Of a stretch of DNA of 64,000 bases, positions 52,474 through 52,636 are shown piece by piece. The notes below the pieces were generated by a model. It was given only the letters and a program-made list of their open reading frames with translations. It was not told where the DNA came from and searched no databases. The translations under genes and the position numbers were made by a program. The stretch spans positions 4,421 through 68,420 of IMG/VR virus record IMGVR_UViG_3300027805_000012, one strand, 5' to 3'. This stretch comes from a virus. How positions within the stretch are numbered: position 1 is the first letter of the stretch; each line of letters opens with the position of its first letter.

Positions 52474-52636
52474 TACAGAAACTGCATCTCGGTATGAACG
52501 AGAACCCCTGAGCAGGTCGTGTGGGGGTTTTGAGCGCCAGTATGATCGACGACGGTGATTACTGTGCTGCGTATGACGCTAGGCTCAAAAGTAGGTGCAG
52601 TCGGGGCGCAATCCATCAATCCTACCGGTTTCTGTA
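52474..52636 (+). ncRNA. Multi-helix structured RNA (~163 nt)
   Basis: tacagaaac/gtttctgta, actgcatct/aggtgcagt, ttgagc/gctcaa, aacccc/ggggtt. Confidence 0.6.

Follow-up and report, generated by a model that had tools for sequence, protein, structure and literature searches.

Does the densely folded RNA that closes the tRNA array of an uncultured giant phage act in cis, as a likeness to riboswitches and ribozymes might suggest, or does it lead an existence of its own? The question arises from a 64,000-nucleotide (nt) stretch of viral DNA (positions 4,421 to 68,420 of the IMG/VR record IMGVR_UViG_3300027805_000012; henceforth the window), in which an earlier note, made from the letters alone, had marked positions 52474-52636 as a 163-nt multi-helix RNA with a possible kissing loop, resembling riboswitch or ribozyme folds and assignable to no family. 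The IMG/VR record measures 69.8 kb and is rated 19% complete, and the window is therefore a fragment of a giant phage genome. It bears 17 tRNA genes on the plus strand (49647-52467), and the element, on the same strand, stands at the far end of this array, where it comes after a tRNA-Val with a short AU-rich spacer between the two.

The window copy of the element (W) has four homologs (H, S, M and V) in uncultured phage or metagenome contigs; a loop-loop contact covaries among the members, and a contig with a head-to-tail junction represents W in an RNA library. We regard it as rather probable that the members constitute a small family, as yet uncatalogued, of structured non-coding RNAs of 152-163 nt, found in the tRNA arrays of large uncultured (freshwater) phages, in which a kissing helix of 5-6 base pairs (bp) locks a five-way junction, and which are excised, closed into a circle and used as a binding scaffold or decoy; this estimate applies to the explanation as a whole, with all of these parts taken together.

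A structured RNA recurs in phage tRNA arrays

For the search, 80 Ro60-encoding IMG/VR records were gathered through an alignment of Ro60 and examined as whole records, and three pattern scans were added. The models comprised one based on a single sequence (R1) and one based on four sequences (R2), and the five members were brought together in an alignment (A4). With R2 the four homologs score 31.7-149 bits. Every one of them lies within a tRNA array, in the same orientation as the tRNAs, and among the five members three have a tRNA gene directly on either side. H (locus L108, 1501-1662, minus strand) fills the gap between a tRNA-Thr and a tRNA-Trp, S (L144, 1501-1661, plus strand) lies between a tRNA-Thr and a tRNA-Lys, M (L113, 9075-9230, plus strand) belongs to a 25-tRNA array on a metagenome contig, and V (L128, 1286-1444, plus strand) to a region of dispersed tRNAs in a phage record of 180 kb. 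In the record of V, an open reading frame (ORF) of 272 aa without a Pfam match (L148, 6777-7595, plus strand) extends over the first 20 nt of the RNA (there 7576-7734), so that this copy is preceded by a protein gene and not by a tRNA. Directly after M, at about 9246-9658 of L113, the sequence opens like a tRNA (GGGUGUAGCGCAGCCUGGUAG), and ARAGORN and Rfam call none from 9074 to 9659; a further tRNA-like gene of non-canonical type may lie here.

Other searches returned little. When 50,697 phage records were searched with blastn and megablast, the sole match was one of 44 nt to a tRNA; R1 came up empty in the 10 closest Ro60-kin records and in their tRNA clusters, and a DNA synteny search in the Ro60-kin records recovered the tRNA-Val only. 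The remaining pattern-scan matches (L110, L111, L112, L114-L127, L129-L143) were dismissed by the model or by eye as chance. The element is absent from 83 other Ro60-phage records, 17 of which CheckV rates at least 90% complete. As the earlier note had it, the family could not be assigned: a covariance-model search against Rfam 15 places no family over the element at the gathering score, and none even at an E-value of up to 10 in a sub-search of 600 nt, while at the four homolog loci Rfam finds tRNAs only and nothing over the element. A literature search likewise found no paper on this RNA family or on a circular RNA from a phage tRNA array.

The fold, its covariation and a loop-loop contact

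The plus strand of 52474-52636 folds with -60 kcal/mol and a z-score of -2.83, one in 200 shuffled sequences folding as well, and the minus strand has a z-score of only -1.65. The sequence and coordinates agree with those of the earlier note, and these values, together with four homologs that preserve the helices by compensatory changes, bear out the multi-helix character that had been proposed. In the minimum-energy fold an 11-bp closing helix, P1, surrounds four arms, where three had been counted: A, B, a branched C made up of C1 and C2, and D. The nested 9-bp helices of the earlier note fare unequally. Its outer helix, UACAGAAAC(UG)/(CG)GUUUCUGUA, is real, with conservation limited to its top 5-7 bp, whereas the second one, ACUGCA (52481-52486) with UGCAGU (52596-52601), is complementary only in W and H and not in V, M or S, and was rejected.

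P1 is formed by UACAGAAACUG (52474-52484) and CGGUUUCUGUA (52626-52636). Its top 5 bp (5' strand 52480-52484) are kept as a helix, are 100% paired across the alignment and show double changes in four of five pairs. Invariant junction bases CA (52485-52486) lead into arm A (52487-52503), a stem of 4-5 bp (100% paired, three of four pairs covarying) with the 7-nt loop GUAUGAA, which is identical in four members and reads GUAGAA in the fifth. Arm B (52504-52528) has a 6-bp stem, 96.7% paired and with five of six pairs covarying, and a 13-nt loop with a conserved AGGUC. Domain C (52529-52589) begins with a 7-bp stem leading to a three-way junction, from which the hairpins C1 (52536-52567) and C2 (52569-52579) branch off, as indicated alike by the fold, covariation and RNAalifold. 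Arm D (52591-52625), seen in the alignment and by RNAalifold, has the 5-bp stem GUAGG/CCUAC and, beyond it, the conserved UGCAG...UCAAU as an internal loop and a small hairpin at the apex; its 3' strand abuts the 3' strand of P1 without a spacer. All of these lie on the plus strand. The invariant single-stranded parts are thus the CA after P1, GUAUGAA in A, AGGUC in the loop of B, GAC-G in that of C1 and UGCAG/UCAAU in D. Complements of GUAUGAA, UCAAUCC and GGUGCAG have no consistent site across the five loci. The apical loop of arm D (52604-52614 in the window) is variable, with UUCGAAU in V, UGUCGAAG in H, AUCGAA in S and GCGCAA/CGCAA in W and M.

Across A4, 93.4% of the pair cells hold standard pairs and 32 of 46 pairs are changed on both sides, values that none of 500 shuffles reached; sliding the partners by 1-3 columns lowers the paired fraction to 31-46%. 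The nested helices were part of the model that built the alignment, and their covariation counts accordingly lean towards them. RNAalifold, however, predicts the same helices independently, with compensatory changes in 36 of 46 pairs, and leaves the loops of B and C1 open. It is between these loops that GUCGU (52516-52520, in B) and ACGAC (52549-52553, in C1, where GAC and then G are invariant) had been noticed to be complementary, and each does lie within a hairpin loop. The pairing reads GUCGU/ACGAC in W, GUCGG/CCGAC in V, GUCAC/GUGAC in H and GUCGAA/UUCGAC in M; in S it is GACGU/ACGAC with one A-A mismatch, or a shifted ACGU/ACGU. Overall the kissing helix is 96% paired, and pair 47-79 is found as U-A, A-U, C-G and G-C. 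Covariation among homologs, which the earlier note had named as a check on its kissing loop, is thus present in four of the five sequences, and since this helix, unlike the nested ones, was not part of the alignment model, it supports a tertiary contact between the two loops. By its covariation alone the B/C1 contact would be compatible both with pairing within one molecule and with pairing between two copies. Within a single molecule, it would lock the junction of P1, A, B, branched C and D.

A head-to-tail junction in a metatranscriptome

The stretch is present in two freshwater metatranscriptomes of different studies (X1 and X2). Contig 13 of X2, 191 nt long and with a depth of 13, matches 52473-52633 over its bases 1-161 and returns to 52473-52502 over its bases 162-191. 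It defines a 161-nt RNA species (52473-52633, plus strand) in which U52633 is joined to U52473, a junction that closes a circle (or a head-to-tail form). The underlying Logan assemblies use 31-mers, drop k-mers seen once and recognize a circular contig by a 30-mer terminal repeat (PMC12424806). Contig 13 carries precisely such a repeat and stems from an RNA library, whereas a DNA-type contig (X4-29, 52559-52751) runs colinearly across 52633/52634. The neighboring contigs of X2 have depths of 3-7, and none of its contigs joins the element to either flank. The simplest reading of contig 13 is a 161-nt circular RNA, with head-to-tail multimers less likely; folded as a circle, it has P1 as an 8-bp stem closed by a UUAC loop. 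Its eight stop triplets exclude an endless translation of the circle.

From X1 comes a colinear 556-nt contig (52070-52625), which extends from an endonuclease ORF through both adjacent tRNAs into the element and would fit either a precursor or contaminating DNA. The runs also have gaps, with no X1 contig over 52626-52855 and no X2 contig over 52006-52472, which carry no evidential weight. On the whole, the RNA data favor a trans-acting RNA, excised as a discrete and probably circular molecule, over the riboswitch or ribozyme that the architecture had brought to mind.

Resemblance to tRNA

The order of the helices is that of a class II tRNA, with P1 in the place of the acceptor stem, A of the D arm, B of the anticodon arm, C of the long variable arm and D of the T arm. 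The connectors agree with this, measuring 2-3 nt after P1 and then 0-1, 0-1, 1-2 and 0 nt, and the 5-bp stem of D continues by its 3' strand straight into that of P1, as a T stem does into an acceptor. P1 comprises 7 bp in S and M, giving a tRNA-like 12-bp (7+5) stack, and U52633, the 3' end of the circle, is one base past a 7-bp acceptor-like stem, that is, at the discriminator position. On the other hand, neither ARAGORN nor RF00005 calls the element a tRNA, and the core signatures of tRNAs are missing from the alignment: there is no U8, G18G19, T-loop (UUCRA) or CCA, and CA occupies positions 8-9. The loop that would correspond to the anticodon loop (B) has 13-17 nt, against the 7 nt usual in tRNAs, and is paired to a branch of the variable arm. 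A class II layout without a tRNA call or core signatures suggests, by analogy of form, that the element is probably a much-remodeled tRNA derivative that no longer decodes. The arm D of V is the only one that resembles a true T arm (GGGGUUCGAAUCCC), its UUCGAAU being T-loop-like.

Proposed release and sealing, and a candidate ligase

We envisage that the element is transcribed together with the tRNAs and would be set free when the short AU-rich spacers are cut in the maturation of the flanking tRNAs. P1 would then bring both ends side by side, and these would be joined to give a covalently closed circle of 161 nt; the likeliest agent is an RNA ligase, either the Rnl2-type enzyme of the phage or one of the host. 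The resulting stable RNA, devoid of ends, could present its invariant loops (GUAUGAA; UGCAG/UCAAU) to a partner. Such loops on a rigid scaffold without ends suggest a role in binding or as a decoy, and the one we favor is a nuclease-proof scaffold or decoy that would engage an RNA-binding protein or nuclease of the host or the phage.

The 5' end of the circle falls in the AU-rich spacer, 5 nt past the encoded CCA of the tRNA-Val(GAC) (52393-52467, plus strand). On the 3' side, a tRNA-like RNA with two predicted T-arm-like hairpins (approximately 52649-52748, plus strand) would supply RNase P-type processing. Among other cutting modes considered, the 2-nt 3' overhang geometry of RNase III, the bulge-helix-bulge motif and the RNase E consensus RN|WUU each misfit both cut sites. 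A separate 164-nt contig of X2 with a depth of 3.4 corresponds to 52628-52791 (plus strand) and spans this downstream RNA along with a 12-bp hairpin at about 52757-52785, so that the tRNA-like RNA is likewise present in the RNA library.

The nearest candidate for the sealing enzyme is an ATP-dependent RNA ligase encoded about 7 kb upstream of the element (44696-45328, plus strand), whose nucleotidyltransferase domain matches PF09414 with 93.8 bits over positions 2-171 of the 171 in the profile. The same ligase gene lies about 6 kb upstream of H (record G022), and kin phages carry T4 Rnl1-type ligases as well. No RtcB was found in the window phage or in four kin records, which leaves a phage RtcB route unsupported and a host RtcB possible. 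The window ligase looks split, with a 210-aa ORF (44696-45328) that contains the whole PF09414 domain followed by an overlapping 191-aa ORF in another frame (45286-45861), and in kin phages the same gene is a single ORF of 354-384 aa; the split could be a frameshift, an assembly error or real.

A bolder proposal, which we put forward tentatively and with distinctly less confidence than the general explanation, is that the phage purposely makes a covalently closed circular non-coding RNA from a remodeled tRNA excised from the transcript of the array, seals it with its own ligase and deploys it as an exonuclease-proof decoy or scaffold against host defense or RNA surveillance.

Weighing the alternatives

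Several facts sit uneasily with an excised, ligated circle. The circle is drawn from a single contig of one run, at the level of contigs only; the other RNA run, X1, yields only its colinear contig; and the RNA data cover W alone among the five members. The association with the ligase is one of co-occurrence, as kin phages with the ligase lack the RNA, and neither PF09414 nor PF09511 was found in the records of S and V, although both are partial and this counts for little. At its 5' end the circle reaches 5 nt beyond the tRNA-like 'acceptor' of 7 bp, a position that RNase P-type processing does not explain, and the family is rare and patchy, with five copies found, which implies that the RNA is dispensable. 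Some of these points would suit a linear molecule of the same structure, the junction being an artefact of template switching by the reverse transcriptase between abundant, sharp-ended molecules or a tandem duplication in a variant phage: the junction occurs in one contig of one run, the contig of X1 is colinear, and contigs can reveal neither ends nor levels. Yet all 30 of the 31-mers that span the junction were kept although the mean depth of the contig is only 13 and k-mers seen once are dropped, so that the junction reads are no rare by-product; the library was random-primed, and hence no RNA-ligase step is expected in its preparation; and a tandem duplication would have given an X2 contig joining the element to a flank, of which there is none. 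On balance we consider a linear RNA unlikely, while giving it more credence than any of the other identities discussed below. The circle of a group I intron can be set aside: the marks of that class are a 3' terminal G, a U just ahead of the 5' splice site, a P3-P7 core and a host gene that splicing restores, whereas this RNA ends in U, has an A preceding its 5' end, lacks a match to RF00028 and interrupts no gene.

Among RNAs of other function, a Y RNA deserves consideration, as the window phage encodes a Ro60 protein (61679-63289) with TROVE and vWA_Ro60 domains, which the element might tether or gate in the manner of the bacterial YrlA and YrlB. Records of Ro60-encoding phages account for three of the five members (W, H and S), but these turned up because Ro60 phages were the set searched; the 83 other such records, including the 17 of high completeness, lack the element, and no TROVE gene was seen in the record of V (51% complete). 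Like YrlA (RF02553) and YrlB, the element has a tRNA-like module and a terminal stem in which its ends pair (P1, with its covarying pairs), and is found in some Ro60-carrying genomes, but it is larger (161 versus 80-130 nt) and absent from most Ro60 phages (PMC4201824). YrlA and YrlB also bear a Ro60-contact motif, GNCGAAN0-1G, near the 5' end (PMC4201824), which is absent there from all five members, GUCGAAG being present only in H and in the apical loop of arm D; nor is there a match to RF02553. A Y RNA is accordingly a doubtful identity, to which we give little weight. Even less probable is a self-processing ribozyme that cuts itself out or ligates its own ends, or does both, in the manner of the VS or hairpin ribozymes. 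The natural forms of both are circular and VS uses a GUC/GAC kissing loop, which recall the circular form, the invariant GUC/GAC of the kissing loop and the multi-helix core with invariant loops seen here. However, no ribozyme family appears at an E-value of up to 10, the order of the helices is unlike that of VS, and each of the five members has its own sequence at the ends and at the base of P1, in contrast to the conservation of known self-cleaving sites; ordinary processing of tRNA spacers, moreover, accounts for the release. We find a riboswitch or another cis-regulator, such as a ligand sensor controlling read-through downstream, barely credible. The lysine riboswitch is a five-way junction with an L2-L3 kissing loop, and the element recalls it in size and complexity, being likewise an approximately 160-nt five-way junction with a loop-loop helix between neighboring arms. 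Nevertheless, it has no match to RF00168 or to any other Rfam family, and neither the junction sequence, the 5'-UTR position nor the expression platform of that riboswitch; three of the five copies have a tRNA gene immediately on each side, and neither an ORF nor an expression platform, in the window it is a tRNA-like RNA that follows, and the RNA accumulates as a separate species. The riboswitch- or ribozyme-like reading of the earlier note is therefore abandoned, on account of the negative Rfam search, the copies within tRNA arrays and the end sequences that are not conserved.

Genomic neighborhood

Elsewhere in the window, a CCA-adding/poly(A) polymerase-type enzyme is encoded at 30922-32040, and homing-endonuclease-like ORFs sit within the tRNA array. 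One of these appears as a remnant just upstream of the last tRNAs, with ORFs at 51795-52007 and 52030-52311 (plus strand). A match to a PHROG endonuclease is limited to the second of the two, of 93 aa, and to the C-terminal part of the endonuclease (137-220 of 236); this ORF runs at its end into tRNA-Met, which begins at 52274. This layout mirrors that of segB within the T4 tRNA cluster. A protein encoded near the element, at 53166-53741, has no relatives in IMG/VR. Within the array, at 51143-51289, tRNA-like ends at about 51287-51289 and at 51143 are connected through 16-19 other letters in contigs from three runs; where the window phage has long inserts, related sequences in those samples seem to have anticodon arms of ordinary, short length.

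Comparison with known systems

The closest precedent for the sealing step comes from archaea, where an ATP-dependent Rnl circularizes C/D box sRNAs (PMC9014305). The circular non-coding RNAs of archaea are, like the element, small structured RNAs, and their paired termini are sealed by an Rnl-type ligase (PMC9014305, PMC3326292); they differ in belonging to another domain of life and another RNA family, and the ligase step of the phage element is one that we infer. The scheme outlined above nonetheless suggests a simple pathway, in which excision of the tRNA type is followed by sealing with a ligase, and with it a natural class of substrates for the RNA ligases of large phages. Should the circle prove to be made by the phage, phages would have their first family of circular RNAs that is not intronic, and the phage Rnl2-type ligases a natural job beyond tRNA repair. 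Confirmation of both the circularity and a binding partner would open a circular RNA biology in bacteriophages, and this in loci, the tRNA arrays, that are now viewed as being devoted to anti-defense.

As regards its class, we assign the element to a known kind, the small stable RNAs of phage tRNA clusters, of which the species 1 and 2 RNAs of T4 (rnaC, 139 nt, and rnaD, 119 nt) are examples. These too are small stable RNAs, encoded in the orientation of the tRNAs at the distal end of their cluster, and the element shares with them this orientation, a place inside the array or at its end, and its occurrence as a discrete RNA. The gene orders also run in parallel: the T4 cluster ends with segB, tRNA-Arg, rnaD and rnaC, and the window with the endonuclease ORF, tRNA-Met, tRNA-Val, the element and the second tRNA-like RNA. 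The correspondence is one of locus and kind, since R2 finds nothing in the T4 locus and there is no likeness of sequence or structure to rnaC or rnaD; rnaC, in contrast to the element, ends in a plain T arm, and we know of no report of a kissing loop or a circular form for either T4 RNA. To our knowledge, rnaC and rnaD have been known for 50 years and are still without an assigned function. To this kind of RNA the element adds a well-defined family, with a tertiary contact backed by covariation and environmental evidence for a circle.
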